Shown here piece after piece: positions 3,772 through 16,421 of a stretch of 25,526 nt of DNA. The notes beneath the pieces are model-generated. The model was not told where the DNA came from, did not search any database, and saw nothing but the letters and a program-made list of their open reading frames with translations. A program made the position numbers and the translations under genes. Numbering within the stretch: the stretch's first letter is position 1; every line of letters starts with the position of its first letter. The stretch is from a virus (lineage: Duplodnaviria > Heunggongvirae > Uroviricota > Caudoviricetes): IMG/VR virus record IMGVR_UViG_2571042636_000011; one strand, written 5' to 3'.

Positions 3772-4005
3772 ATGCGTAATATTGAAACCCTCAAGACTAA
3801 AACCGGACCGGATGATGCAGGGCTTAATATTTTACTGACAGAGGCTCGTCTGGAAGAACGCCGGGCAAGGGCTGAAGCAATGGCAGCTCGCCTTGATAGC
3901 CTGGCGTGTCATATCACATCCCGCCAGCTAAACCACGTCGAAGCAGCAGAACTACTGCGTGTAACTGCTGAAGCAATCCAGAACGAAGCGCAGGAGATCC
4001 ACTAA
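3772..4005 (+). CDS. Hypothetical early-operon protein, about 77 aa, predicted helical
   Basis: ATG 3772 with CAGGAG 8 nt upstream (the ORF track starts at TTG 3766). Stop overlaps the start of the next gene (TAATG at 4003..4007). Charged, helical composition (EERRARAEAMAARLDSL...). Confidence 0.5.
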   Translation: MRNIETLKTKTGPDDAGLNILLTEARLEERRARAEAMAARLDSLACHITSRQLNHVEAAELLRVTAEAIQNEAQEIH

Positions 4006-4232
4006 TGGCTGATGCAATGGATCTCGTACAGCAGCGCGTTGAAGAAGAACGCCAGCGCCATATCCGTGCTGCCCGTGCCAAAACGCCGGGCGTGTCCCGC
4101 GTGCTTTGCATTGAGTGTGAAGCGCCAATTCCGCCAGCACGCCGCCGCGCCATTCCAGGTGTGCAGCTTTGCATTACCTGTCAGGAAATCGCAGAGCTGA
4201 AAGGCAAACATTACAACGGAGGTGCTGTATGA
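4005..4232 (+). CDS. TraR/DksA-family C4 zinc-finger protein (P2 orf82-like)
   Basis: 75 aa with CxxC...CxxC (CIECEAPIPPARRRAIPGVQLCITCQ), typical of phage and plasmid TraR/DksA-like proteins. AGGAG 7 nt upstream of ATG 4005. Stop TGA overlaps the dam start (ATGA at 4229..4232). Confidence 0.7.
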   Translation: MADAMDLVQQRVEEERQRHIRAARAKTPGVSRVLCIECEAPIPPARRRAIPGVQLCITCQEIAELKGKHYNGGAV

Positions 4233-5086
4233 GCACCATCCTGAAATGGGCGGGAAATAAAACCGCCGTAATGTCCGAACTGAAAAAACATCTTCCAGCT
4301 GGCCCGCGACTGGTTGAACCTTTCGCGGGTTCCTGTGCTGTGATGATGGAGACGGATTATCCCAGCTATCTGGTTGCGGATATTAATCCTGATTTAATCA
4401 ACCTCTATAAAAAGGTTGCCGCTGATTGTGAATCGTTTATATCTCGCGCCAGAGTTTTATTTAAGGAAGCAAACAGGGAGGTGGCTTATTACAACATAAG
4501 GCAGGAGTTTAATTACTCAACTGAAATTACTGATTTCATGAAAGCGGTATATTTCCTGTATCTCAATCGTCACGGTTACCGTGGGTTATGTCGCTATAAC
4601 AAGAGCGGGCATTTCAACATTCCCTACGGTAATTATAAAAATCCGTATTTCCCTGAAAAAGAAATTCGCGCATTTGCAGAGAAAGCCCAACGAGCAACGT
4701 TTATCTGCGCCAGCTTTGATGAAACGCTGGCGATGTTGAAGGCGGGGGATGTGGTGTATTGCGATCCGCCGTATGACGGTACGTTTTCCAGCTATCACAC
4801 TGATGGTTTCACTGAAGATGACCAGTATCACCTGGCATCCGTTCTTGAACATCGGTCATCAGAAGGACATCCGGTCATTGTTTCTAACAGTGACACATCC
4901 CTGATCCGTTCGCTGTATCGCAATTTTACTCACCACTACATCAAGGCAAAACGCAGCATCGGCGTAGCAGCTGGTGAGAGTAAATCTGCAACAGAAATCA
5001 TCGCTGTTTCTGGGGCGCGCTGCTGGGTGGGATTTGATCCTTCGCGTGGCGTGGATAGTTCTGCCGTGTACGGAGTACGTGCATGA
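4229..5086 (+). CDS. dam: DNA adenine (N6) methyltransferase, Dam family
   Basis: Start [11 protein letters not shown] (Dam motif I, KWAGGK-like) with GGAGG upstream of ATG 4229. Catalytic motif DPPY present ([10 protein letters not shown]). Length about 285 aa. Stop overlaps the start of the A gene (ATGA). Confidence 0.85.
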
Positions 5087-7497
5087 GACATGCTGATATG
5101 AACAACTGCAGCGGCTTTAACGAGGCCGCCGCAGCATTCTCATGGAACAGCCCGAAAAAGGCGATTAACCCTTATCTGGACCCGGCGGAAGTTGCGCCGG
5201 TTTCTGCGCTTTCAAACCTGATCACTCTGTACGCTGCCGATAACAAGCAGGAACAACTGCGCCGCGAGGCACTGAGTGATCAGGTCTGGGAGCGTTATTT
5301 CTTTAATGAATCCCGTGATCCTGTCCAGCGCGAAATGGAGCAGGATAAGCTCATTAGCCGGGCAAAGCTGGTGCATGAGCAGCAGCGTTTTAATCCGGAC
5401 ATGGTCATACTGGCGGACGTTAACGCCCAGCCTTCCCATATCAGCAAGCCGCTGATGCAACGTATTGAATACTTCAGCAGCCTGGGCAGGCCAAAGGCTT
5501 ATTCCCGCTATTTGCGTGAGACGATTAAACCATGTCTGGAACGACTAGAGCATGTACGCGACAGCCAGCTATCTGCATCTTTTCGTTTTATGGCAAGCCA
5601 TGAAGGGCTGGACGGCCTGCTGATCTTGCCTGAAATGAGTCAGGATCAGGTGAAGCGCCTGTCTACCCTTGTTGCCGCGCATATGAGCATGTGCCTTGAT
5701 GCAGCTTGTGGTGATTTGTATGCCACCGATGACGTTAAGCCAGAAGAAATCCGCAAGACATGGGAAAGGGTGGCGGCGGAAACCCTGCGTCTGGATGTCA
5801 TCCCTCCTGCGTTTGAGCAACTCCGCCGGAAAAGAAACCGCCGTAAACCCGTACCCTATGAACTCATTCCGGGTTCGCTGGCGCGTATGTTGTGCGCCGA
5901 CTGGTGGTATCGGAAATTATGGAAGATGCGTTTCGAATGGCGGGAAGAGCAGTTGCGTGCTGTTTGCCTGGTCAGCAAAAAAGCATCTCCCTATGTCAGC
6001 TATGAAGCCGTGATGCATAAACGTGAGCAGCGCCGTAAGTCGCTGGAGTTTTTCCGTTCTCATGAACTGGTGAACGAAGACGGCGACACGCTGGATATGG
6101 AGGACGTGGTAAACGCCAGTAGTAGCAACCCGGCGCATCGCCGCAATGAGATGATGGCATGTGTTAAAGGTCTGGAGCTTATCGCGGAAATGCGCGGTGA
6201 CTGCGCCGTTTTCTACACCATCACCTGTCCGTCACGTTTCCATTCCACGCTAAATAACGGCAGGCCCAACCCGAACTGGACAAATGCGACGGTAAGACAA
6301 AGCAGTGATTATCTGGTCGGCATGTTTGCTGCATTTCGTAAGGCGATGTACAAAGCCGGATTGCGCTGGTATGGCGTGCGGGTGGCTGAGCCGCATCATG
6401 ACGGTACAGTTCACTGGCACCTGTTGTGTTTTATGCGCAAAAAAGATCGCCGCGCCATTACTGCTTTGTTGCGTAAGTTTGCCATTCGTGAAGACCGCGA
6501 GGAGCTGGGTAATAACACAGGACCACGCTTTAAGTCTGAGCTGATAAACCCGCGCAAAGGTACACCAACAAGCTACATCGCGAAATACATCAGTAAGAAC
6601 ATTGACGGGCGTGGTCTGGCTGGCGAGATCAGCAAGGAAACGGGTAAATCTCTGCGTGATAACGCTGAATACGTTAATGCCTGGGCGTCTCTGCATCGTG
6701 TTCAGCAATTCCGCTTCTTTGGCATTCCGGGGCGTCAGGCTTACCGTGAACTGCGATTGCTGGCTGGTCAGGCGGCAAGGCAACAGGGTGACAAAAAAGC
6801 AGGTGCGCCGGTACTGGATAACCCGCGCCTTGATGCCATTCTGGCTGCAGCTGATGCTGGTTGCTTTGCCACCTACATCATGAAGCAGGGCGGCGTACTG
6901 GTTCCCCGTAAATATCACCTCATCAGAACCGCTTATGAAATCAACGAAGAGCCGACCGCCTATGGCGATCACGGTATTCGTATTTATGGCATCTGGTCAC
7001 CCATTGCAGAGGGCAAGATCTGCACTCATGCAGTGAAGTGGAAAATGGTCCGTAAAGCCGTTGACGTTCAGGAGGCGGCAGCCGACCAGGGCGCTTGCGC
7101 CCCTTGGACTCGTGGCAATAACTGTCCCCTTGCTGAAAATTTGTACCAACAAGGGAAAGACAAATCAGCTGATGGAGATACCAGAACGGATATCACCCGT
7201 ATGGATGACAAGGAGTTGCACGATTACCTGCACAGTATGAGCAAAAAAGAGCGCCGGGAACTGGCAGCAAGGTTACGCCTGGTGAAACCGAAACGGCGTA
7301 AAGACTACAAACAGCGAATTACAGATCATCAGCGACAGCAGCTCGTGTATGAACTGAAGTCCAGGGGATTTGATGGCAGCGAGAAAGAGGTCGATTTACT
7401 CCTTCGCGGCGGCAGTATTCCGTCAGGAGCAGGCCTGCGTATCTTCTATCGGAACCAGCGTTTGCAGGAAGATGATAAGTGGCGGAACCTGTATTAA
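5083..7497 (+). CDS. A: Rolling-circle replication initiator endonuclease (P2 gpA / 186 RepA family)
   Basis: 804-aa ORF after the early genes. Contains an HxH metal-binding motif ([11 protein letters not shown]) and a tyrosine-containing region ([17 protein letters not shown]), as in P2 A-type nickases. GGAG 7 nt upstream of ATG 5083. Confidence 0.9.
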
Positions 7498-8226: not shown

Positions 8227-10086
8227 TTAGTGAGGGCTGGTTATTACGTAGTCGCTCTGGTCATCCTCTCCCAGCCTCTCAGGTATTAAATCGTTGAAGG
8301 AAATAGTATTACTCTTAGGTTTTTCTTCAATTGGAAGTTCAGCTACCCTTAATTTGAGCGGCATGGGGCAGACGATACCACTAAAAATACAGGTTCCTGT
8401 AGATAGCGTTGGAATCGACTCTTCAGTCAGTCGATCTATATATGATACTGATTTTTCAATTGCGTACAGATCATTCTGATTAATAAGGCGATGAATAAAA
8501 TAATTGTGTGCTTGGGATATGATTGTCGACGATATATCATTAGGGCGTTGACTGGAAATTGTGATAAAAACTCCAAATTTTCTCCCCTCCTTTATGATTT
8601 CCTCAAAAGTTTCCAGACGATAATCTCTCCAACTTTCCGTTTCCCGAAAAGAAGTATTAGACAAAATATTGTGGGCTTCATCTATAATGATGTGCAGTGT
8701 AGATTTCTCTGTAGACATTTTCTTCATATTGTAAGCCCACTTGGCTATCAAAAGAGGAAGCGTTTTTTTCATGGTTATATTAACCATATTTAGATTCACA
8801 ACCGTGAAATTATGTTCACCCCAAAAGTCAGACTGTCCGGAAGTATCAAATATTTTGGCTATATCTTTACGGTTAGCACTCATTCTATTTATAACTGGTG
8901 AAATATGTTCAGGGTTAGACTTGTTAGATAAATATTCCTGTATTAACTGTAAGTACATAAAGTCCAACAGTTCTTCAATCATATCAGTTTTAAATGAAAA
9001 ATTGCTTGCAAGACTGAATAGATAGGAGCGCTCAGTATCAGCTTCTGTATTGAAAATACTACCACCCCTCAATTTCCATTTATATGCAGTTGAATGATAC
9101 TCAAGATCAGATATAAGTTCTGGGTCATCTTTGAAAATTGGGCTAAGAAACTGATTTATAGTATCGCATTTGGGTTTGTCGCTACTAAAGAGATTTTGTC
9201 TGACTTTTTTCTTCAGGATATTGCGCATAAACTCAAGAGGATTATCAGCAGTCATCACTTTCTTGCGAAACTCAAGAACTCTCTTCAGGAAAGGTTTCTG
9301 TGTTTTGTCTGTTGCATCGGTTAGAACTGAGAGCATATCATGCTCAAGTAGAACCTCTCTGGGTAGAGGAAGTTTGTCACCATTTGCATGGTGCGTGTTG
9401 AGATTATAAACCGTCTTCTCGTCAGTAATACAGCGTGGGGCAGTATATTCTCCATTAAAGTCGAATAGAATAAATTTGCATCTTTCACTAAAGTGGTTGC
9501 CGAGAATATGTTTAACTTGGGCAATACCTGCTTTGTATAGCGCGGCTAGGGTATTTGACTTTCCGCTGCCTGTATTACCGAAAATGGCAATGTGGGAATT
9601 AATAAGACCATTGATTGGTAGTGCAATTTCAATATCTTCAAGATCTGTACGAGTAAACCTCATTACAGTTTCGTCTGCATCAGCTATCTGATGAACCGTC
9701 TGTATCATCTCTTCAGTTACCACGAAGACTTCATTGCCGATGAGAGGTAGTTCACGCGAACCACCAATGAAGCAACCAGTACGATCAATGTAACCCGTAA
9801 GAGTAGAGGTCAGGTATCGCCGATATCGCCAGGCATCACTGCCGCTCCCAGCGAGATGTTTTTCCTCAATGATTCGTTCCGCTTCAACCTTGCCGATCAG
9901 GCTCATGAAACCTTTTTTGATCTCAATGAAGCTACCCACTGATACATTTCTTAGAACTTTTCCCTGATAAAACAAGTCACTGAGATTTTTGTTTTTATCG
10001 ACCAAAATTGTCACAGCGCGTCCAGAAACCTCACAGACTTCGCCTATACGGAGCACCGCTTCCTCTTCAGTAAAATGCCTGCTCAT
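8227..10086 (-). CDS. herA: HerA-like ATPase (HAS-barrel plus RecA-like P-loop NTPase), predicted partner of the upstream SIR2-like protein
   Basis: About 619 aa from ATG 10086..10084, which overlaps the SIR2 stop (ATGA); GGGAGG upstream. Walker A AIFGNTGSGKSNT and Walker B LHIIIDEAHN. N-terminal beta-rich segment (RIGEVCEVSGRAVTILVDK...GSFIEIKKGFMSLIGKVEAERI) is consistent with a HerA HAS barrel. AT-rich codon usage unlike the phage core. Confidence 0.75.
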   Translation of the reverse strand: MSRHFTEEEAVLRIGEVCEVSGRAVTILVDKNKNLSDLFYQGKVLRNVSVGSFIEIKKGFMSLIGKVEAERIIEEKHLAGSGSDAWRYRRYLTSTLTGYIDRTGCFIGGSRELPLIGNEVFVVTEEMIQTVHQIADADETVMRFTRTDLEDIEIALPINGLINSHIAIFGNTGSGKSNTLAALYKAGIAQVKHILGNHFSERCKFILFDFNGEYTAPRCITDEKTVYNLNTHHANGDKLPLPREVLLEHDMLSVLTDATDKTQKPFLKRVLEFRKKVMTADNPLEFMRNILKKKVRQNLFSSDKPKCDTINQFLSPIFKDDPELISDLEYHSTAYKWKLRGGSIFNTEADTERSYLFSLASNFSFKTDMIEELLDFMYLQLIQEYLSNKSNPEHISPVINRMSANRKDIAKIFDTSGQSDFWGEHNFTVVNLNMVNITMKKTLPLLIAKWAYNMKKMSTEKSTLHIIIDEAHNILSNTSFRETESWRDYRLETFEEIIKEGRKFGVFITISSQRPNDISSTIISQAHNYFIHRLINQNDLYAIEKSVSYIDRLTEESIPTLSTGTCIFSGIVCPMPLKLRVAELPIEEKPKSNTISFNDLIPERLGEDDQSDYVITSPH

Positions 10087-11126
10087 CTCGAGCCTCCCAG
10101 ATAGCACGTGATAATGTTATTCATTACCGGAAAATCAACATTTCTTCCCGGCCGATAAATAATCTCTACGTTTGAGTAATCCCGAAATTTCTCCATAAAG
10201 CCGTTAACACTGGCCTCATCGAAAGCAAAGATCAGTAGCTTCAGGGTGGCGTTGCGCAGGGCTTTTTTAGTTATCGTTTCAATGTGCTCATCAGCAAACG
10301 AGAACCCAAAGACAATTAGTAAAGTTGCTTCTTTATCAAGCTCGTTGGAATAGGTTCTCAGTAAATCATAATAAACGTTCTGTAGTAGAGTCTCTTTAAA
10401 CTTCTCCTTACGTGGAAGAATAAGTGCATGAGCAAGTACCCATCCTTTCATTTCGGCTAGGGTGGGAAAGTCAAGCGGCTTAATATCTGCAATACGATAA
10501 ATGATTTTCCCTTTAGAATGCTGCCAAGAGAGCGAACCATGAAGTTTTATAAGGTTAACAGTAGGAAGCTCAACTTTATAATTATACAGATTTCCGGTTG
10601 CACTTACAGAATGATTAAAGCTACCCGCATCAAATTCCGCATCTCCCAAAATACTTGCTCTTCTATTGAATCCATCATTAAAAAGAATATTGTTATTACG
10701 TGTGGCAGCTTCTTCGATGAATAAATCATAATTAGTTGTAAAAACGTTAATACGCCTCGGAAGTAGGCCAGTTCGGCGGCGGGTCAGTATCTTTTCCAGT
10801 GAAGACATAAATGCATCATAATTTGCACGGGTACATTCCAAATCGGTGATCACCTGAGGTGCGAAGGGGGTGCCGTAGCCGCGCTTCAACATGCATTCAT
10901 GAGGTAGCCAAACATCTGACAAAAAGTCAGCTGCCATCCTTAAGTATTCATCTTCCTGTTCATCATTAATAAGCTGCTGAAGATCCGTTTCGATTGTCCC
11001 CAGTACTTTAATCGCTGGGAGGGATGCACCTGATCCGATGAGAAAGTTAATGTTAGCTGACTGAAATATCCGCTCTAAGTAGTCTCGGTCACTATCGTTA
11101 CCGTAGTATGCGCGCTTGACTGCCAT
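10083..11126 (-). CDS. SIR2-like (sirtuin-fold, predicted NAD+-consuming) defence effector protein
   Basis: About 347 aa from ATG 11126..11124 (AAGGA SD; the ORF track starts at TTG 11141). Gly-rich NAD-binding loop FLIGSGASLP, the TTNYD motif (VFTTNYDLFIEEA) and a candidate catalytic His in KLHGSLSW, as in defence-associated SIR2 domains. Coupled to the HerA-like gene. Confidence 0.75.
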   Translation of the reverse strand: MAVKRAYYGNDSDRDYLERIFQSANINFLIGSGASLPAIKVLGTIETDLQQLINDEQEDEYLRMAADFLSDVWLPHECMLKRGYGTPFAPQVITDLECTRANYDAFMSSLEKILTRRRTGLLPRRINVFTTNYDLFIEEAATRNNNILFNDGFNRRASILGDAEFDAGSFNHSVSATGNLYNYKVELPTVNLIKLHGSLSWQHSKGKIIYRIADIKPLDFPTLAEMKGWVLAHALILPRKEKFKETLLQNVYYDLLRTYSNELDKEATLLIVFGFSFADEHIETITKKALRNATLKLLIFAFDEASVNGFMEKFRDYSNVEIIYRPGRNVDFPVMNNIITCYLGGSR

Positions 11127-11426
11127 CTTATCCTTCCACAAAACATTGGATTAGTCTGTAATTTATTTAATCTTAACGCCGAGCTCAATACTTTAACATC
11201 ACTTCTTCTGGCGATTGCTATGAGCCCTTCTTGATAAAAAGTTCGATCGGGAAACTGATCCTTTATGCCACAAGTTTTCTAGCTATCCTCAAAAAATTGG
11301 TGTTAAAACTGTGCCAACAAAGTTGCAAGGTTCGCTTCTCGCTCACAGCGAACTTTCATCTTTGTAAACCCGTATGATTCGCTTTTCAGCAGTCATTCAG
11401 ATACGGATTTACGCTTCCCTTGGCAG

Positions 11427-11456
11427 CGCATGACTATGACGCATGAGATCGCATGA
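11427..11456. repeat. Three direct repeats of CGCATGA at 13- and 10-nt spacing
   Basis: cgcatgactatgacgcatgagatcgcatga. Copies start at 11427, 11440 and 11450, in the non-coding region about 100 bp left of the candidate cos sequence. Function unknown. Confidence 0.4.
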
Positions 11457-11551
11457 TCGTTTAAGGATCGTTTTTGCTGAAGTCAGCCAGAACTGGCGTG
11501 CTTTTGCTTATGTCATGCAGGTGCATGAAAACCACTACATAAAGCGGGCAG

Positions 11552-11570
11552 GCGTGGCGGGGATACGAGC
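11552..11570. other. Candidate cohesive-end (cos) site of the P2/186 type
   Basis: GGCGTGGCGGGGATACGAG followed by GC-rich CGCGCGC. The first 13 nt match the start of the 19-nt P2/186 cos overhang as I remember it (P2 GGCGAGGCGGGGAAAGCAC). It lies in the prophage position between the right-end accessory genes and Q. Identification is from memory and unverified. Confidence 0.3.
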
Positions 11571-11650
11571 GCGCGCAATGCTATGATCTGGCTCTTTCAA
11601 AACTGTTAACGGTTCTTCACATTCTTAAATGATCATGGTAGCTTAAGCAT

Positions 11651-11781
11651 GCACATGTAGGCAGATTTGTTGGTTGTGGTATCGCAATCAGTGATCTAAA
11701 TGTTAGATGGATTCGCCTTCTGACATCCTTGTAGCCATTCTTGGGCTGTCCTATGCTTTGCGTAAGAGTGCCTACATGTGC
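11651..11781 (+). ncRNA. msr-msd: Retron msr-msd non-coding RNA (template for msDNA), bounded by a1/a2 inverted repeats
   Basis: 13-bp inverted repeat GCACATGTAGGCA (11651..11663) and TGCCTACATGTGC (11769..11781) flanks about 105 nt, immediately upstream of the RT gene (starts 11817), which is the canonical a1-msr-msd-a2-RT arrangement. The 5' part (CATGTAGGCAGATTTGTTGGTTGTG..ATCGCAA.CAGTG) resembles an enterobacterial retron msr that I recall. Exact ends are approximate. Confidence 0.5.
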
Positions 11782-11816
11782 CTACCCTAACTGATAATCA
11801 AGGTTGATTTTTAGAT

Positions 11817-13574
11817 ATGGCACCCCTATCAATTTTAGAACGTTTACAAAACGCTGCTAACAGGCAAGATTTGGCTAGTATCTTGAATCTTAAAACTGCT
11901 TTTCTTACGGATGTTATTTATCGTTTAAAAGCTGAAACGCAGTATACACAATTTACTATCCCTAAAAAAAACGGAGCGCCGAGAGTCATATCAGCACCTA
12001 CCACTAAGCTCAAAGATATTCAACGTAGATTAGCTGATGTTTTATATTTATGTCGTGCAGAAATTTATAAAAAATATAATATTAATCCAGTTTTATCTCA
12101 TGGGTTTGAAAAAGAAAAGTCAATTATTACGAATGCTGAACGGCATAGAGGTAAAACGCTACTACTAAATATAGACCTTGAGGATTATTTTGATAGTTTT
12201 AATTTTGGACGTGTTAGAGGTTTTTTCTTATCAAACAGAGATTTTAGATTAAATAATACTGTTGCTACAACGATCGCACAAATTGCATGTTTTCAGAATG
12301 GACTTCCTCAAGGAAGCCCATGCTCTCCAATTATAAGTAACTTAATCAGTGGAATTCTTGATATAAGATTATCAAAGTTAGCAAAGAAATACGGATGCAA
12401 TTATTCACGGTATGCTGATGATCTTACATTTTCAACTAATAAAAAAACATTTCCAAAAGAGATTGCTGATGTTGGCGGAGAGTCTGTAACCCTAAGTCCA
12501 ACTTTAATTAAAGAGATTATAAAGGCTGGCTTTAAAATAAATGATAAAAAGACAAGGGTTTGTTATAAAACATCACGACAAGATGTTACTGGGTTGACTG
12601 TTAATAAAAAAGTGAATGTTGGCAAAGAATATGCAAAAGTAACGCGTGCCATGGCTCATTCTCTTTATAAAGATGGTTCTTTTGTTATTGTTACTGAATC
12701 AGGAAAGATTGAAAAAGGTACATGTGCTAAATTAGAAGGCCGTTTTGGATTTATTGACTCAATAGATAAATATAATAATTTAAAACTAAAGAACGCAAGA
12801 CAGTTGGAAAAGTACCAAAGTGTAAATCATGGATTAAACTACACTGCAAAATTGAATTCGAGAGAAAAAGCCTACAGTTATTTTCTATACTATAAAAATT
12901 TTCATGGAATGGAAATGCCAACAATACTCACTGAGGGTAAAACAGACCGTGTATATTTAAAGTGTGCTTTGAAGTCATTGGCGAATTCATATCCTTTATT
13001 GTTTAATTCTTCTGATGATAGCTCTAAAAATGAGTATCGTGTTAATTTTTTTAAAGCAACTGAAAAAACAAGCTATTTTCTTGACATTTCTGGCGGTGCT
13101 ACAGACTTCAAAAGATTTATATTAAGATACCAAGAACAAAAAAAGAGGTTCGAGAAATTTAAACCAAAGCACCCTGTTATTATGCTTCTTGATAATGACT
13201 CAGGCCCTAAAGATTTATTAAATCACTTAAAGGATAAAGTAAAAAATTGTCCAAATGATGTTGATACTATTCGTAAGGCAAGGTATACCCACATATTTGA
13301 CAATCTCTATTTGTTATTAACACCATTGCTTCCTGGAGGGAAAGAGTCTTGTATGGAGGATTTATTTGATAGCACGGTACTATCAACGGTGCTTGATGGA
13401 AAGACATTTAATAAATCTAATGATACGGATACAAAAACAGAATATGGTAAGCATGTGTTTTCAACAAAGGTTATAAAGGCAAATTGTAAAACAATTAGTT
13501 TTGAAAAGTTTAAAGTTATTTTTGATGGTATTGAGGAAATTATTGCAGATTATTCAAAGAGGTGCAAAGTATAA
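11817..13574 (+). CDS. ret: Retron-type reverse transcriptase with a C-terminal TOPRIM-like (OLD-family-like) domain, 585 aa
   Basis: RT motifs seen in the translation: motif A LLLNIDLEDYFDSF, motif B QGLPQGSPCSPIISNL, motif C YSRYADDLTFS (YADD). C-terminal about 250 aa contain a conserved Glu motif (ILTEGKTDRVYLK) and a DxD motif (MLLDNDSGP), consistent with a TOPRIM fold. Very AT-rich codon usage. Confidence 0.9.
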   Translation: MAPLSILERLQNAANRQDLASILNLKTAFLTDVIYRLKAETQYTQFTIPKKNGAPRVISAPTTKLKDIQRRLADVLYLCRAEIYKKYNINPVLSHGFEKEKSIITNAERHRGKTLLLNIDLEDYFDSFNFGRVRGFFLSNRDFRLNNTVATTIAQIACFQNGLPQGSPCSPIISNLISGILDIRLSKLAKKYGCNYSRYADDLTFSTNKKTFPKEIADVGGESVTLSPTLIKEIIKAGFKINDKKTRVCYKTSRQDVTGLTVNKKVNVGKEYAKVTRAMAHSLYKDGSFVIVTESGKIEKGTCAKLEGRFGFIDSIDKYNNLKLKNARQLEKYQSVNHGLNYTAKLNSREKAYSYFLYYKNFHGMEMPTILTEGKTDRVYLKCALKSLANSYPLLFNSSDDSSKNEYRVNFFKATEKTSYFLDISGGATDFKRFILRYQEQKKRFEKFKPKHPVIMLLDNDSGPKDLLNHLKDKVKNCPNDVDTIRKARYTHIFDNLYLLLTPLLPGGKESCMEDLFDSTVLSTVLDGKTFNKSNDTDTKTEYGKHVFSTKVIKANCKTISFEKFKVIFDGIEEIIADYSKRCKV

Positions 13575-13623: not shown

Positions 13624-14655
13624 TTACATATCTAAGTTATATTCTGTAAATGCGATAATATCTGTACCTAACCAGACATTAATCTCCTTGATCCGTTTTT
13701 GCATTGATATCAATTCGTTTCTTACGAATACTTTACTAGCCTTTTCCACATCCCCAAATCCCCCGACATTATTTGGCATTATCCCCATCATCTGTGGCGG
13801 AACGCGATGTGCTGCCATCATGTCATCCCGGCTCACGTTCTTGATATTTAGAAACTCATCCTTCGCCGCAACTTCTGACAAAGGGATGATCTGAAGGCCG
13901 TCCTTTTTGCCGTTAGGCGAGTACATAAACAGGTTGCGGAAGTTACCCGGACCTTTGGCACTTTTCATTGCATTGCGGAGGTTGTTCACGTCCTCCTGGT
14001 TCTGCGCAGCATCGGTCATGTACATGATGAAGCCTGCATGACTACCGTTAATGTAATACTTGCGGCGGAACAGCGTGGCGGACTCATTGAGCAGGGCGGA
14101 CGGAATGGCAGAAAGATAGCCGGGTAGGCCGTAGATCTCCTGGTTAATGTCCGGTTCCATCAGATGAAAAATGCTACCTTTCGTGAACTGATACGGCTGG
14201 GTTGTCATACCATATTGCACAAACCAGTAGGTATCCAGGTCTAACCCGCGTCGGGTGTATTTTGCCAGAGCAGGCTCAAGGGCGATAACTTCACCGAAGC
14301 GGTTCGTGCGTTTCTCCAGGTAGGCGTTACCAAATACCAGATAGTCCTGCACAAAACGTGAAAAAGCCTGCTGGCTGAGCAGCGGGTGAGGGATGTAGGT
14401 ACTGGTCAGAATGTTGCATTTTACTGCAATCGGTGAGCTGTGATGCACGGCAGCGCGGAAGGTTCGTGCCAGTCCGTCAAAGCTGACGGGCGGCTCATAC
14501 CAGCGGTCCATCTGTACGCATTCCATATAGTCCAGCAGTTCACGGCGGTCCAGAACAGGAACGGGATCGCCAAAGCTGAATGCTTCGGCTGAAGTCTGGC
14601 TTTTATGCTTGAGCTGATTCGTCGCCGCAGCGCGGTTTTTCTTACTCTTTCCCAT
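13624..14655 (-). CDS. Q: Portal (capsid portal vertex) protein, P2 gpQ family
   Basis: About 343 aa, the size and position of P2 Q (first packaging gene beside the cos region, transcribed leftward with P). ATG at 14655..14653; the ORF track starts at TTG 14658. Start overlaps the P stop. Confidence 0.85.
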   Translation of the reverse strand: MGKSKKNRAAATNQLKHKSQTSAEAFSFGDPVPVLDRRELLDYMECVQMDRWYEPPVSFDGLARTFRAAVHHSSPIAVKCNILTSTYIPHPLLSQQAFSRFVQDYLVFGNAYLEKRTNRFGEVIALEPALAKYTRRGLDLDTYWFVQYGMTTQPYQFTKGSIFHLMEPDINQEIYGLPGYLSAIPSALLNESATLFRRKYYINGSHAGFIMYMTDAAQNQEDVNNLRNAMKSAKGPGNFRNLFMYSPNGKKDGLQIIPLSEVAAKDEFLNIKNVSRDDMMAAHRVPPQMMGIMPNNVGGFGDVEKASKVFVRNELISMQKRIKEINVWLGTDIIAFTEYNLDM

Positions 14656-16421
14656 CAAAAAATCTCCACAATATTGCTGGTATTGGCGGATTCGCCCTGC
14701 AGCGGTTCGTTAAACAGTGCGTGCATCGTTGCCCAGGCCAGATCGGCGTGGCTGGCTTCTTCGCTGCGGCTGGCTTCATAGGTCGGGCGGTTGCCGCTGG
14801 CGGTGGTGGCGCGACGGATTGCCATGAATGACTGCGCAATGTCGGTGTGCCCGGCGTCAAACTCCAGACGGCGGTGGCTGATAATGTCGTAGGCCTTGAG
14901 TACCAGGGCGTTTTTAACATTGGGGTTGTAGACAAACTCCCGGACGGCAGGAAAGAACGCTTTCACGTTCTCATAAACCCCGTGACCAACGCCGGTTGAG
15001 TCGATACCGATATAGGTCACGTTGTACTGTTCGGTGAGTTTTTTGATGGCGTCAGCCTGGGCGCGGAAGTCCATCCCGCGCCACTGGTGACGCTCAAGAA
15101 TGCGGAACTTACCACCCGGCACGGCTGGCGGAGCCACCACCACGCATCCGGCACTGTCGCCGTTCTGCGTACCTTTTGCCGGGTCATAACCGATCCACAC
15201 TTCGCGCCAGCCAAACGGGCGTAGGGCCAGTGCATGAAAGTCGGTCCAGACTTCCCAGCTGTCCACCATGCACGCCTGCAGTTCGCTGAGCGGGAACACG
15301 GACGCGAGATCGTCCACGAACTCGCACATCAACAGGTTCTGGTATTCGTCCGGGCTGTACTCCATGCGTAGCTGGTCGAGGTCGAACAGGTTACAGCCGC
15401 CGCGCACCGCATCTTCCACGGTGACTATCTGGCGGTATTGCCCATCTGCGCACAGCAGGCCGGGGGCCAGATTGCTGTGGGACAGGTCGATGTCCACCTT
15501 GTCAGCTTTGTTGCGTCCACGGTTGAACAGCGCACCGGACCAGAACGGATAAGCACTGTGGGTCAGGCTGGATGGCGTGGAAAAATAGGTTTGTCGCCAT
15601 TTTTTGTGAATAGCCATCCCGGAAGCCACTTTGCGCAGCTCCTGGAATTTCGGTATCCAGAAATATTCATCCAGATACAGGTTGCCGTGATAACTCTGGG
15701 CCGTGCGGGCATTGGTGCCGAGGAAGTAAAGCGTGGCTCCGTTAGGAAGCACCATCGGATCGCCTTTTAGCTCCACCTCGACTTCTTTGGCGAAGTCGAT
15801 GATGTATTGTTTAAAGACGTGGGCCTGAGCCTTACTGGCAGAAAGGAAAATCTGGTTACGTCCGGTAAGCAGGGCGTCAATCAGGGCTTCACGGGCAAAA
15901 TAGAAGGTCGCGCCGATCTGGCGTGACTTCAGCAGGTTGCGGATGCGGTTGGTTTTTCCGGCTTCCCACCAGTGGCGCTGGTAGTTGAACATGGAGGAAT
16001 GGAAGATTTCTTCCAGCTTCTCAATCTGCTCATCGGTGAAAACATTCTTTTCCGGCTGACGGCGTGGGCCTTTATTGCGGTTGGCGACGTTAGGGTTTAA
16101 GTCGGCTTCGTTGCCGCCATTGTTAAACTTGCCGATCCGCGCGTGGCGCTCAGACTGGCGCGCCAGCAGGTCAATCTCTTTGAAATCTTTCCCTTCTTTG
16201 TGCTCCTTCATAATGAGCTGGCAGTAGCGTGCGGCGGTGGTGAGCTGCATCTGATCCAGCGGCCCATAGTCACCCCACTTGTCGCGTTTTTTCCAGCTGT
16301 GAACGGTTGCAACTTTCTCGCCCAGCATTTCAGCAATGCGGGCTACGCGGTATCCCTGAAAGTACAGCAGCATGGCCTGCCGACGGGGATCGAGATCTGC
16401 GGGTGTCAGTGTGGTGTTCAT
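14655..16421 (-). CDS. P: Terminase large (ATPase) subunit, P2 gpP family
   Basis: 588 aa, between Q and the divergent O gene as in P2. N-terminal HTH-like MLLYFQGYRVARIAEMLGEKVATVHSWKKR and a large nuclease/ATPase body. Confidence 0.9.
   Translation of the reverse strand: MNTTLTPADLDPRRQAMLLYFQGYRVARIAEMLGEKVATVHSWKKRDKWGDYGPLDQMQLTTAARYCQLIMKEHKEGKDFKEIDLLARQSERHARIGKFNNGGNEADLNPNVANRNKGPRRQPEKNVFTDEQIEKLEEIFHSSMFNYQRHWWEAGKTNRIRNLLKSRQIGATFYFAREALIDALLTGRNQIFLSASKAQAHVFKQYIIDFAKEVEVELKGDPMVLPNGATLYFLGTNARTAQSYHGNLYLDEYFWIPKFQELRKVASGMAIHKKWRQTYFSTPSSLTHSAYPFWSGALFNRGRNKADKVDIDLSHSNLAPGLLCADGQYRQIVTVEDAVRGGCNLFDLDQLRMEYSPDEYQNLLMCEFVDDLASVFPLSELQACMVDSWEVWTDFHALALRPFGWREVWIGYDPAKGTQNGDSAGCVVVAPPAVPGGKFRILERHQWRGMDFRAQADAIKKLTEQYNVTYIGIDSTGVGHGVYENVKAFFPAVREFVYNPNVKNALVLKAYDIISHRRLEFDAGHTDIAQSFMAIRRATTASGNRPTYEASRSEEASHADLAWATMHALFNEPLQGESANTSNIVEIF

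Follow-up and report, generated by a model that had tools for sequence, protein, structure and literature searches.

The dam gene of Fels-2-type P2-like prophages and its possible link to GATC avoidance

P2-like phages that carry their own Dam-type methyltransferase show no strong depletion of GATC in any case examined, whereas many of those that lack the gene do. Among 69 P2-like phages and prophages, judged by their core genes, a GATC avoidance index below 0.5 was found in none of the 29 with dam and in 22 of the 40 without it (Fisher 2e-7, Mann-Whitney 7e-8, both uncorrected for phylogeny, and with the Fels-2-like dam-bearing genomes forming a single clade). This contrast is what is new here. 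The gene is not: the dam gene of the window (the whole stretch of 25,526 nucleotides of viral DNA that was analysed) is, going by its sequence, the long-known GATC adenine methylase gene of P2-like prophages of the Fels-2/retron-Ec67 type, already known, ordinary, and automatically annotated. I propose that its product probably acts as an early-lytic self-methylase, shielding replicating phage DNA from some GATC-directed hazard, and this seems the best reading of what follows. I suggest more tentatively that by carrying dam a P2-like phage may escape the avoidance of GATC seen in enterobacterial phages.

The gene and its neighbours lie as follows, in positions of the window:

3772 to 4005, plus strand: DUF2732 gene, homologue of P2 Orf80 and 186 Orf79 (PF10809, E 1.5e-29)
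4005 to 4232, plus strand: TraR/DksA-family C4 zinc-finger protein, 75 aa, homologue of P2 Orf82 (PF01258, 3.1e-11)
4218 to 4232, plus strand: TraR/dam junction, with GGAGG at 4218-4222, a 6-nt spacer, and ATGA at 4229-4232
4229 to 5086, plus strand: orphan Dam-family N6-adenine DNA methyltransferase, 285 aa, predicted GATC specificity (PF02086, TIGR00571)
5072 to 5086, plus strand: dam/A junction, with GGAG at 5072-5075, a 7-nt spacer, and ATGA at 5083-5086
5083 to 7497, plus strand: replication initiator/nickase gpA, 804 aa (PF05840, Phage_GPA, 1.5e-126)

The DUF2732 gene is the first member of a chain of overlapping genes that ends at A. Its stop (TAA, 4003-4005) shares a TAATG, as read from the sequence, with the ATG of the TraR-like gene (4005-4007). 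The ATG of dam (4229-4231) lies within an ATGA whose TGA is the TraR stop, and the TGA that ends dam (5084-5086) is overlapped in the same manner by the ATG of A (5083-5085), so both of the ATGA overlaps claimed in an earlier note on this DNA are there. Shine-Dalgarno-like sequences precede the three starts (AGGAG at 3992-3996 in the case of the TraR-like gene), and those at the 4-nt overlaps fall within the upstream ORFs. A longer ORF beginning with TTG (4169-5086) was considered for the start of dam and dropped; the homologues and the PGAP annotations all start at the ATG. The TraR-like protein scores 65.8 bits against TIGR02419, the NCBIfam TraR family (cutoff 59.7), and identical copies are labelled by PGAP "TraR/DksA family transcriptional regulator".

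The same chain with the same overlaps is found in RE2010, Fels-2, SopEPhi, Cartapus, 813R9, and Klebsiella phages. The TraR/dam junction is unchanged in RE2010, Fels-2, ST11phi8.4, and Cartapus, the dam/A overlap is retained as ATGA or GTGA in five relatives, and DUF2732 keeps its place in the gene order in RE2010, Fels-2, P2, and 186. P2 itself has no methylase here, just as the note had said, having instead Orf83 (DUF5405) between the zinc-finger gene and A. Between the genes of the chain there is no plus-strand promoter-like site and no convincing terminator. Nor is there a restriction endonuclease gene near dam, whose neighbours are DUF2732, TraR, gpA, and DinI, and the methyltransferase may therefore be called an orphan within the window, where every large ORF has been assigned to phage, SIR2-HerA, or retron genes.

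The gene is a complete member of the Dam family with KWAGNK and DPPY motifs, a claim of the note that ORF reading, Pfam, and NCBIfam all bear out. The protein matches PF02086 (D12 N6-adenine methyltransferase) over the whole of the profile (positions 1-253 of 253, E 1e-76, 258.4 bits against a cutoff of 22) and TIGR00571, the NCBIfam Dam family, over positions 1-266 of 267 (323.8 bits, cutoff 114.85). Against NF008152, the equivalog of host Dam, it scores 291.4 bits, below the cutoff of 441, and by its sequence it is a member of a phage subfamily, not an orthologue of chromosomal dam. The homology placement that the note had called for falls within the Dam family, nearest to phage genes of the Fels-2/RE2010 type (73-98% identical). 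The match to E. coli Dam structures has an E-value of 7e-74; 48% of 255 aligned residues are identical, or 122 of the 285 residues of the window protein (43%).

KWAGNK takes up residues 6-11, and the DPPY of catalytic motif IV (D179-Y182) aligns with D181-Y184 of E. coli Dam. DPPY is retained in five of six homologues compared, and ST11phi8.4 likewise has it. Six residues with which E. coli Dam contacts GATC (K9, Y119, L122, R124, P134, and Y138, their roles taken from PMC4417163) are present in the window protein as K6, Y117, L120, R122, P132, and Y136, while two other DNA contacts have changed, N120 to R118 and R137 to N135. The AdoMet-binding motif I reads EPFAGSC in place of the EPFVGAG of E. 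coli, keeping the Phe and the first Gly but with Cys for the last Gly. That Cys is fixed in all clade members examined, which suggests that the change is tolerated. The catalytic and GATC-contact residues are retained also in ST15phi14.1 and in Fels-2 Dam, which is 73% identical to the window protein once the two are realigned around a compensating pair of indels. dN/dS between dam homologues is 0.12-0.19, and purifying selection runs along the whole protein. As for recognition sites, homologues more than 65% identical to M.EcoMIV had none determined, according to the account in PMC4659465.

The dam block is present in 1241 of 5426 complete E. coli genomes (roughly 23%) and the A allele of the window in 1288 genomes of that set. 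Salmonella phage RE2010 and many Klebsiella peduoviruses have the TraR-Dam block at about 97% identity, and it occurs also in Fels-2 (STM2730) and SopEPhi. On such grounds dam appears to be a backbone gene of the Fels-2/RE2010-type (186-like) peduovirus prophage. A cluster-mate of the window protein, at least 90% identical, bears the name "retron EC67 DNA adenine methylase", and Hsu, Inouye and Inouye (PNAS 87:9454) are said to have described the Dam methylase of the retron-Ec67 element in 1990. The arrangement that caught the attention of the note is real, then, but nothing out of the ordinary: a very common prophage lineage has it as its standard backbone, and it has been known from the literature since 1990.

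The contrast in GATC frequency is plain in whole genomes. The ratio of observed to expected GATC is 0.74-0.78 in the window, Fels-2, ST15phi14.1, RE2010, and the E189 prophage, all of them dam-bearing, and 0.56 (ESSI-2), 0.94, and 0.89 in three distant dam-bearing genera; a sampled flank of E. coli chromosome gives 0.81. In five dam-less relatives (P2, 186, pro483, MDG45, and YenM_201.16) the ratio is 0.11-0.25, and in each of these no other palindromic tetramer of the 16 is as depleted as GATC. Codon choice tells the same story. In the dam-less phages, 5-12% of Asp codons are GAT where the following codon begins with C, versus 54-60% otherwise, and 4-11% of Ile codons are ATC where the codon before ends in G, versus 44-53% otherwise. 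There is nearly no such bias in the dam-bearing genomes.

The association of dam with GATC goes one way only. Thirteen dam-less loci show little avoidance (index of at least 0.65), among them three loci closely related to the window (L031, L032, and L034), where TraR lies directly against A. ORFs with (D/N)PPY that might encode other methyltransferases occur in only two of the thirteen (L085 and L109). The remaining 11 contain no (D/N)PPY candidate within the roughly 20 kb that each locus spans, a length at which a methylase elsewhere in the prophage would be missed.

Avoidance of GATC by phages has precedent in the literature. The tetramer is described in PMC5014478 (citing McClelland 1984, and Deschavanne and Radman 1991) as counter-selected in enterobacteriophages, whose DNA is under-methylated by host Dam, and MutH is named there as a proposed agent of the counter-selection. 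Endogenous Dam is described as rate-limiting for high-copy DNA in bioRxiv 10.1101/2020.06.22.160242. A search of the open literature, with older subscription literature outside it, found no paper linking GATC frequency to carriage of dam in P2-like phages. Of the three roles that the note had offered for a phage Dam, protection of progeny DNA gains indirect support from the comparison of GATC frequencies.

The mechanism I propose runs as follows. The slot that dam occupies is a variable one, set between the conserved TraR-like zinc-finger gene and gene A in the CI-repressed early lytic operon. By virtue of that position dam would be expected to stay unexpressed during lysogeny and to be switched on along with A once lytic growth starts. 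M.EcoMIV, a Dam homologue of an ST131 prophage that may differ from the window protein, is described as not transcribed in the lysogen (PMC4659465). The 4-nt overlaps of start and stop would probably couple translation of Dam to that of its neighbours; according to the record of phage 186, translation of A appears to need translation to the end of the preceding gene. The extra Dam would supplement a limiting host enzyme, so that fast-replicating phage DNA would reach full GATC methylation before it is packaged. Full methylation would in turn remove the hazard, be it MutH cutting at unmethylated or hemimethylated GATC, restriction directed at unmethylated GATC, or binding by SeqA, all three being equally compatible with the GATC data. 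Since every known host already has Dam, the benefit of a second one would have to be quantitative.

One might ask whether the methylase matters at all. Any translated ORF that ends at the start of A would bring ribosomes to A, and dam may be no more than a filler of the slot, its product contributing little. In P2 the slot contains DUF5405, in 186 an exonuclease, DUF5405, and a PAPS-reductase-like gene, and in the three close relatives of the window nothing; moreover, the 186 record calls the slot genes non-essential, while translation to the end of orf84 appears needed for A. But such a filler is unlikely in view of the purifying selection over the whole of Dam, the retention of all its catalytic and recognition residues, and the association of the gene with GATC frequency, and four divergent Dam subtypes (38-50% identical to the window Dam) recur at the same place in separate genera. 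The idea that Dam is inactive, or methylates a sequence other than GATC, would draw on the N120R, R137N, and Gly-to-Cys changes relative to E. coli Dam, on the score below the equivalog cutoff (291 versus 441 bits), and on an unverified type IIA label that REBASE had on the ST131 homologue. I give it very little credence: the substitutions are fixed across the clade under purifying selection, R124, L122, P134, Y119, and K9 are retained, and it is GATC specifically whose avoidance vanishes in dam-bearing genomes. It is just as hard to believe that dam is a lysogenic-conversion function, altering the methylome, mutation rate, or gene expression of the host in ways that help the lysogen. Reprogramming of hosts by prophage methyltransferases is known from other systems (for example from PMC12435837), but this one sits downstream of the cI/apl switch, in the early lytic operon and not with the lysogenically expressed cargo, its ST131 homologue is described as silent in the lysogen (PMC4659465), and nearly all GATC sites are already methylated by the host.

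Other alternatives turn on features at some distance from dam:

11551 to 11569, plus strand: predicted 19-nt cos cohesive-end sequence, GGCGTGGCGGGGATACGAG, aligned to annotated P2 cosR and the 186 right end
11650 to 13574, plus strand: retron Ec67/Eco2, with the ncRNA at about 11650-11782 and the RT-TOPRIM gene at 11817-13574
13624 to 14658, minus strand: portal gene, the retron sitting between it and cos

The predicted cos divides the cargo of the right end (SIR2-HerA) from that of the left end (the retron). The RT-TOPRIM protein scores 722.7 bits against NF038237 (cutoff 450). Rfam gives no match in the window at gathering thresholds, and only chance-level matches in 11100-11900, and the retron ncRNA was therefore placed by its a1/a2 inverted repeat of 13 nt (11651-11663 and 11769-11781), next to which is the CAGA with its branching G at 11664. 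The CAGA branch motif of Ec67 is taken from PMC6868368 and the limits of the msDNA from PMC6868368 and PMC12916289. PMC6868368 and PMC7826664 place Ec67 in a prophage related to 186, between cos and the terminator of the packaging genes, and the retron of the window has that same position.

It is doubtful that Dam is mainly a regulator, with methylation of specific GATCs timing the recognition of cos by terminase, replication from ori, or the switch between lysis and lysogeny. There is the example of P1, whose packaging depends, as PMC12707154 describes it, on Dam methylation of GATC in pac. GATC does lie at 11447, 11455, and 11466, 85-105 bp from the predicted cos within a block of GCATGA repeats, and two of these cos-proximal sites are invariant in 9 of 9 aligned Fels-2-like dam-bearing sequences, P2, 186, and pro483 having none there. 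However, the nine are close relatives in that block, which makes their agreement weak evidence. GATC is absent within 150 bp of cos in Kp4873-2, a peduovirus that belongs to another genus and carries dam, and at the place of the GCATGATC of the Fels-2 clade the dam-less YenM_201.16 reads GCATGATT and GCATGATG. With GCATGAT repeated in that phage and followed by T or G, the GATCs at cos seem to arise incidentally from a GCATGA(T) repeat after which a C may freely follow. By a rough estimate, about 0.24 such triplets would be expected by chance in the window. Dam-dependent recognition of cos was downgraded on the strength of these two phages, and the cos-proximal GATCs are probably incidental. 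Action at the replication origin was rejected: the nick site, predicted near 7106-7108 inside A from an alignment of the window with the annotated ori of P2 and of 186, lacks GATC in its conserved core, and the nearest are at 7017 and 6967. A site-specific role would also leave the genome-wide release from GATC avoidance unexplained. Then there is the retron. [quoted passage not shown] Dam and retron might be a functional pair, Dam modifying msDNA, for example, or controlling expression of the retron; retron Sen2 is triggered by over-expression of Dam through GATC in its msDNA, and GATC sites crowd the stretch 11245-11693, which runs from upstream of the retron ncRNA into it. Yet such a pair is scarcely credible. 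A full-length Ec67 reverse transcriptase is found in only 14 genomes, against 1241 with the dam block, and identical dam backbones have AIPR or other cargo at the place of the retron, AIPR in the case of a prophage whose dam block is 100% identical. The msDNA template (about 11702-11768) is without GATC, the single one, at 11693, falling in the RNA-only part, while the upstream GATCs belong to the cos region of the phage and are conserved in relatives that have no retron. Eco2 is, moreover, reportedly triggered by phage nucleases, not methylases (PMC12916289). The functional link was rejected on prevalence, interchangeable cargo, and the GATC-less template. The note was right to invoke retron-Ec67, but dam and the retron occur together by a coincidence of cargo. 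"Retron plus Dam" is to be read as prophage backbone plus interchangeable cargo, and this should caution anyone inferring functional links from co-location on P2-like elements.

What phage-borne Dam does is, according to PMC7556043, still poorly understood, and PMC5014478 calls it unclear why enterophages avoid GATC. The difference between phages with and without dam points to a way of testing this directly in a tractable family of temperate phages, one in which GATC is four- to ten-fold depleted in P2, 186, and many other members without dam. If carriage of dam does free phages from avoidance, then dam-bearing and dam-less lineages of one syntenic family constitute a natural experiment in an easy genetic system, which could settle both why enterophages avoid GATC (MutH acting on under-methylated DNA, restriction, or SeqA) and what phage Dam is for. 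The repeated gain or loss of four divergent Dam subtypes upstream of A would then be a recurrent adaptive switch.

How does the window stand beside known systems? The retron-Ec67 element is closest: like the window, it combines a Dam homologue of 285 aa with the Ec67 retron on a prophage related to 186, the retron lying between cos and the terminator of the portal gene. The likeness of the Dam proteins is suggested by the name of the cluster-mate (at least 90% identical). The window prophage carries a SIR2-HerA pair as well. The abstract of Hsu and colleagues reportedly puts the identity to Dam at 44% and notes three GATC sites close to the promoter of the retron; the 43% identity (122 of 285) and the GATC triplet at 11447-11466 would fit it. 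Fels-2 STM2730, SopEPhi orf8, RE2010 gp10, and the Dam genes of Klebsiella peduoviruses are one and the same gene as the window dam, and slot and overlaps agree too; the proteins are 73% (Fels-2) to 98% (RE2010) identical, and the genes of Fels-2 and SopEPhi are annotated as similar to the retron EC67 methylase. They all differ from the window in alleles only, and in having other cargo at the two hotspots that flank cos. E. coli K-12 Dam (PDB 2G1P and others) shares the fold family, DPPY, and GATC-reading residues of the window protein but not its C-terminal extension of 25 residues, and it is constitutive, whereas the window Dam, in a phage lytic operon, is predicted to be expressed from there. 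P1 Dmt and the Dam of T4 and T2 are, as the window protein is predicted to be, orphan GATC methyltransferases encoded by phages, though only 36% (P1) and 23% (T2/T4) identical to it, and the P1 enzyme is described as required for packaging in dam-negative hosts (PMC12707154). Finally, the slot of 186 orf82-84 and P2 Orf83 has the same early-operon position and the same chain of 4-nt overlaps as the window dam, and the 186 record notes that translation of A appears to depend on the ORF before it, but the contents of the slot (exonuclease, DUF5405, and PAPS-reductase-like) are unrelated to Dam: there is no methylase, and GATC is strongly depleted.

The window is a chromosomally integrated, 186-like prophage of the P2 family (Peduoviridae), in which 4005-5086 holds two genes just upstream of the replication initiator gene A:

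4005-4232, plus strand: TraR/DksA-type C4 zinc-finger protein, 75 aa (PF01258, E 3.1e-11; TIGR02419, 65.8 bits, cutoff 59.7)
4229-5086, plus strand: Dam-family N6-adenine methyltransferase, 285 aa (PF02086, E 1e-76, whole profile; TIGR00571, 323.8 bits)
8227-11141, minus strand: apparent SIR2-HerA pair
11551-11569: cos, predicted
11650-13574: Ec67/Eco2-type retron (ncRNA at about 11650-11782; RT-TOPRIM at 11817-13574)

The gene order is integrase, 186-type CI repressor, CII, DUF5347, DUF2732, TraR, Dam, gpA and a DinI-like gene, with portal, terminase, capsid, lysis and tail genes following the retron. The same order is found in an E. coli chromosome that matches the retron region at 100%. Between DinI and cos, the old/tin position in P2, a SIR2-like gene (10083-11141) overlaps a HerA/DUF87 ATPase gene (8227-10107), both on the minus strand. 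They look like a SIR2-HerA defence pair, seemingly a divergent one because their matches to the NCBIfam anti-phage models fall far below the cutoffs (SIR2 99.8 vs 500 bits; HerA 138.6 vs 800 bits).

The junctions can be read directly from the sequence. The ATG of dam (4229-4231) lies within an ATGA whose TGA stops the zinc-finger gene, the ATG of gene A (5083-5085) lies within an ATGA whose TGA stops dam, and one step upstream a TAATG joins the end of the DUF2732 gene to the start of the zinc-finger gene. The Shine-Dalgarno-like sequences (AGGAG 3992-3996, GGAGG 4218-4222, GGAG 5072-5075) each lie within the preceding ORF. Residues 6-11 of Dam read KWAGNK and residues 179-182 read DPPY. The earlier note had described a complete Dam-family gene with these two motifs, tied by ATGA overlaps to a TraR-like gene upstream and to A downstream, and since both genes, the overlaps and the motifs are all present, that observation stands as written. 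Two GATC sites, at 3996 and 4020, flank the TraR start codon (window 3992-4023), and the first overlaps the Shine-Dalgarno (AGGAGATC).

P2 and 186 resemble the window in that short overlaps chain the genes from DUF2732 through A. According to the 186 record, translation of A apparently needs translation to the end of the preceding gene, and a terminator within A is active if A is untranslated. The ATGA/GTGA junction with A is retained in five relatives of the window, and a scan of the window found neither a promoter-like site on the plus strand nor a convincing terminator between the chained genes. From the overlaps, the 186 record, the retained junction and that scan, it is a well-founded inference that dam is co-transcribed from the early lytic promoter and translationally coupled.

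The arrangement is real, its interpretation was right in outline, and it is already known. The TraR-Dam-A block is about 97% identical in DNA to Salmonella phage RE2010 (genus Felsduovirus) and to dozens of Klebsiella peduoviruses, and about 75% identical to Fels-2 itself, whose dam is annotated (STM2730) as "similar to retron EC67 DNA adenine methylase", a remark also attached to SopEPhi orf8. Since the block is found in 1241 of 5426 complete E. coli genomes in RefSeq (PGAP name "DNA adenine methylase") and the matching gene A allele in 1288, dam is a near-constant backbone gene of the lineage. The Dam protein cluster (at least 90% identity) holds 4038 sequences, one of them named "retron EC67 DNA adenine methylase".

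The earlier note also heard an echo of the retron-Ec67 element, and rightly: Hsu, Inouye and Inouye (1990; cited in PMC7826664 and PMC8989520) say in their title that this element encodes both a reverse transcriptase and a Dam methylase. The link with Dam did not survive. Of the 5426 genomes, only 14 carry the full-length Ec67-type reverse transcriptase. The retron's site, between cos and the portal-gene terminator, is a known hotspot (PMC6868368), and a prophage with a 100% identical 4005-5086 stretch has an AIPR gene there, as does RE2010. Retron Sen2 can be triggered by Dam over-expression through GATC in its msDNA (bioRxiv 10.1101/2020.06.22.160242), and for Eco2 the reported trigger is phage nucleases (PMC12916289). 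No GATC lies in the window's msDNA template (about 11702-11768, delimited by the a1/a2 repeat together with two published features, branching at G15 and termination opposite G52). A functional link between Dam and retron was thus rejected as incidental, given 14 genomes vs 1241, the interchangeable cargo and the GATC-free template. In the retron itself, a1 and a2 form a 13-nt inverted repeat (11651-11663 and 11769-11781), the branching G lies in a CAGA motif (11662-11665), and the RT-TOPRIM is 585 aa long; its ncRNA matched no Rfam family at any useful score.

The evidence points to an active, GATC-specific enzyme. Against E. coli Dam structures the window's Dam gives E 7e-74 with 48% identity, and the residues responsible for GATC recognition and base flipping (R124, L122, P134, Y119, K9 and Y138; roles from PMC4417163) are all kept. 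At three positions it departs from E. coli Dam (Arg for N120, Asn for R137, Cys for the final glycine of motif I), and RE2010, Cartapus, two Klebsiella phages and Fels-2 show these states without exception. Alignable homologues compared in pairs give a dN/dS of 0.12-0.19. Residues 261-285 (window 5009-5083) form a 25-residue C-terminal extension past the end of the E. coli alignment, partly conserved in the clade (W..G.D...G.D.S....VRA); it overlaps the Shine-Dalgarno of A, so the constraint may act on nucleotides.

What does such an enzyme do for its phage? The window contains 92 GATC sites (3.6 per kb), an observed/expected ratio of 0.77, where the expectation is GAT x ATC / AT; its late genes alone give 0.71. 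The ratio is similar in dam-bearing relatives (Fels-2 0.76, ST15-OXA48phi14.1 0.75, the RE2010 fragment 0.75, the E189 prophage 0.78), near the level of the sampled flanking E. coli chromosome (0.81). In P2 (0.20), 186 (0.13), pro483 (0.11), MDG45 (0.15) and YenM_201.16 (0.25), none of which has a tblastn match to Dam, no other of the 16 palindromic tetramers is as depleted as GATC. A within-genome synonymous-codon control removes the effects of codon usage. Dam-less phages write Asp as GAT 5-12% of the time before a codon starting with C vs 54-60% otherwise, and Ile as ATC 4-11% of the time after a codon ending in G vs 44-53% otherwise; the corresponding values in dam-bearing genomes are 48-52% vs 53-58% and 37-44% vs 38-48%.

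The Fels-2-like dam-bearing genomes are a single clade, and therefore independent cases were sought. Three other genera have a divergent Dam homologue ahead of A, represented by ESSI-2 (50% identical, overlapping A by 4 nt), Kp4867-1 (42%) and Kp4873-2 (38%), with genome-wide ratios of 0.56, 0.94 and 0.89. A scan by gpA alignment, one genome per species across Enterobacterales, gave 80 P2-like prophage loci. I define an avoidance index as observed/expected GATC-forming synonymous choices in six core genes (A, Q, P, O, N, M). Its median is 0.92 (minimum 0.53) in 29 dam-bearing phages and prophages and 0.46 (minimum 0.07) in 40 dam-less ones; it falls below 0.5 in 22 of the 40 vs none of the 29 (Fisher 2e-7, Mann-Whitney 7e-8, both ignoring shared ancestry). 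The association runs in one direction, for 13 dam-less loci show little avoidance (index at least 0.65). In three of these (L031, Silvania confinis; L032, Enterobacteriaceae RIT714; L034, Raoultella planticola) TraR abuts A, gpA is 82-83% identical to the window's, marking them as near kin of it, and GATC is not depleted (0.87-0.97); this points to a recent loss of dam or to a methylase in another part of the prophage. Another (D/N)PPY ORF occurs in only 2 of the 13; about eleven (among them L110, L070, L086, L079, L038, L050, L040 and L056) have none within 10 kb of A. Protective methylation does not explain these eleven, unless a methylase lies outside the roughly 20 kb covered per prophage.

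A long-standing view is that enterobacteriophages avoid GATC, that the limiting host Dam leaves phage DNA under-methylated, and that MutH may select against GATC by attacking unmethylated sites, though the cause is called unresolved (PMC5014478, citing McClelland 1984 and Deschavanne and Radman 1991). According to the retron study, too, endogenous Dam is rate-limiting for high-copy DNA (bioRxiv 10.1101/2020.06.22.160242). I propose that phage Dam, produced together with the replication initiator, would fully methylate progeny genomes at GATC, removing the selection against the site, and would also shield them from enzymes that cut only unmethylated GATC. This seems the most likely mechanism, and it fits the pattern of protective methylation expressed only on exit (reviewed in PMC12707154). 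The searchable literature yielded no description of a GATC contrast by dam carriage in P2-like phages, and the contrast offers a direct experimental route into an old question.

Other roles fare less well. A regulatory or packaging function could be read from three GATCs (11447, 11455, 11466) that lie 85-105 bp from cos, in a GCATGA repeat region by a terminator-like hairpin, within the stretch 11425-11578 that holds cos and its conserved flanking block; two are invariant in nine Fels-2-like sequences (the window and eight relatives), and none is found in P2, 186 or pro483. However, no GATC lies near cos in a dam-bearing phage from another genus, and in a dam-less phage the GCATGAT repeat is present but continues with T or G, so the sites are probably an incidental by-product of the repeat, a part in terminase recognition being the less likely reading. 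They may be the "three GATC" reportedly ascribed to the retron promoter in a 1990 abstract. The predicted ori core contains no GATC. That Dam serves to convert the host is unlikely, given its place within the lytic operon and the report that a Dam homologue in an ST131 prophage, perhaps the same protein, is untranscribed in the lysogen (PMC4659465). That the gene merely fills a slot is contradicted by purifying selection across the whole enzyme.

All Dam matches in the scanned loci lie upstream of A on the same strand. Among these and the other-genus phages, four divergent subtypes that share 38-50% identity with the window's Dam recur directly or a short way upstream of A in different Peduoviridae genera. 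Such a recurrence implies that the gene is either ancient and often lost or has been captured repeatedly at the slot. Yersinia phage vB_YpM_MLG42 (L018 1490-2338; PP599993.1 25989-26837) has an intact dam of 285 codons, 74% identical to the window's, in an unannotated gap of the deposited record just upstream of A, with an extra ORF separating it from TraR. By its score against the chromosomal Dam orthologue model (291 bits, below the cutoff of 441) and its identity to P1 Dmt (36%) and T2/T4 Dam (23%), the window's enzyme belongs to a phage subfamily nearer to host Dam than to either of these. Canonical P2 indeed lacks a methylase here, as had been claimed: Orf83 (DUF5405) fills the interval between the zinc-finger gene and A where the window has dam, and in 186 the slot holds three non-essential genes, an exonuclease, a DUF5405 gene and a PAPS-reductase-like gene.
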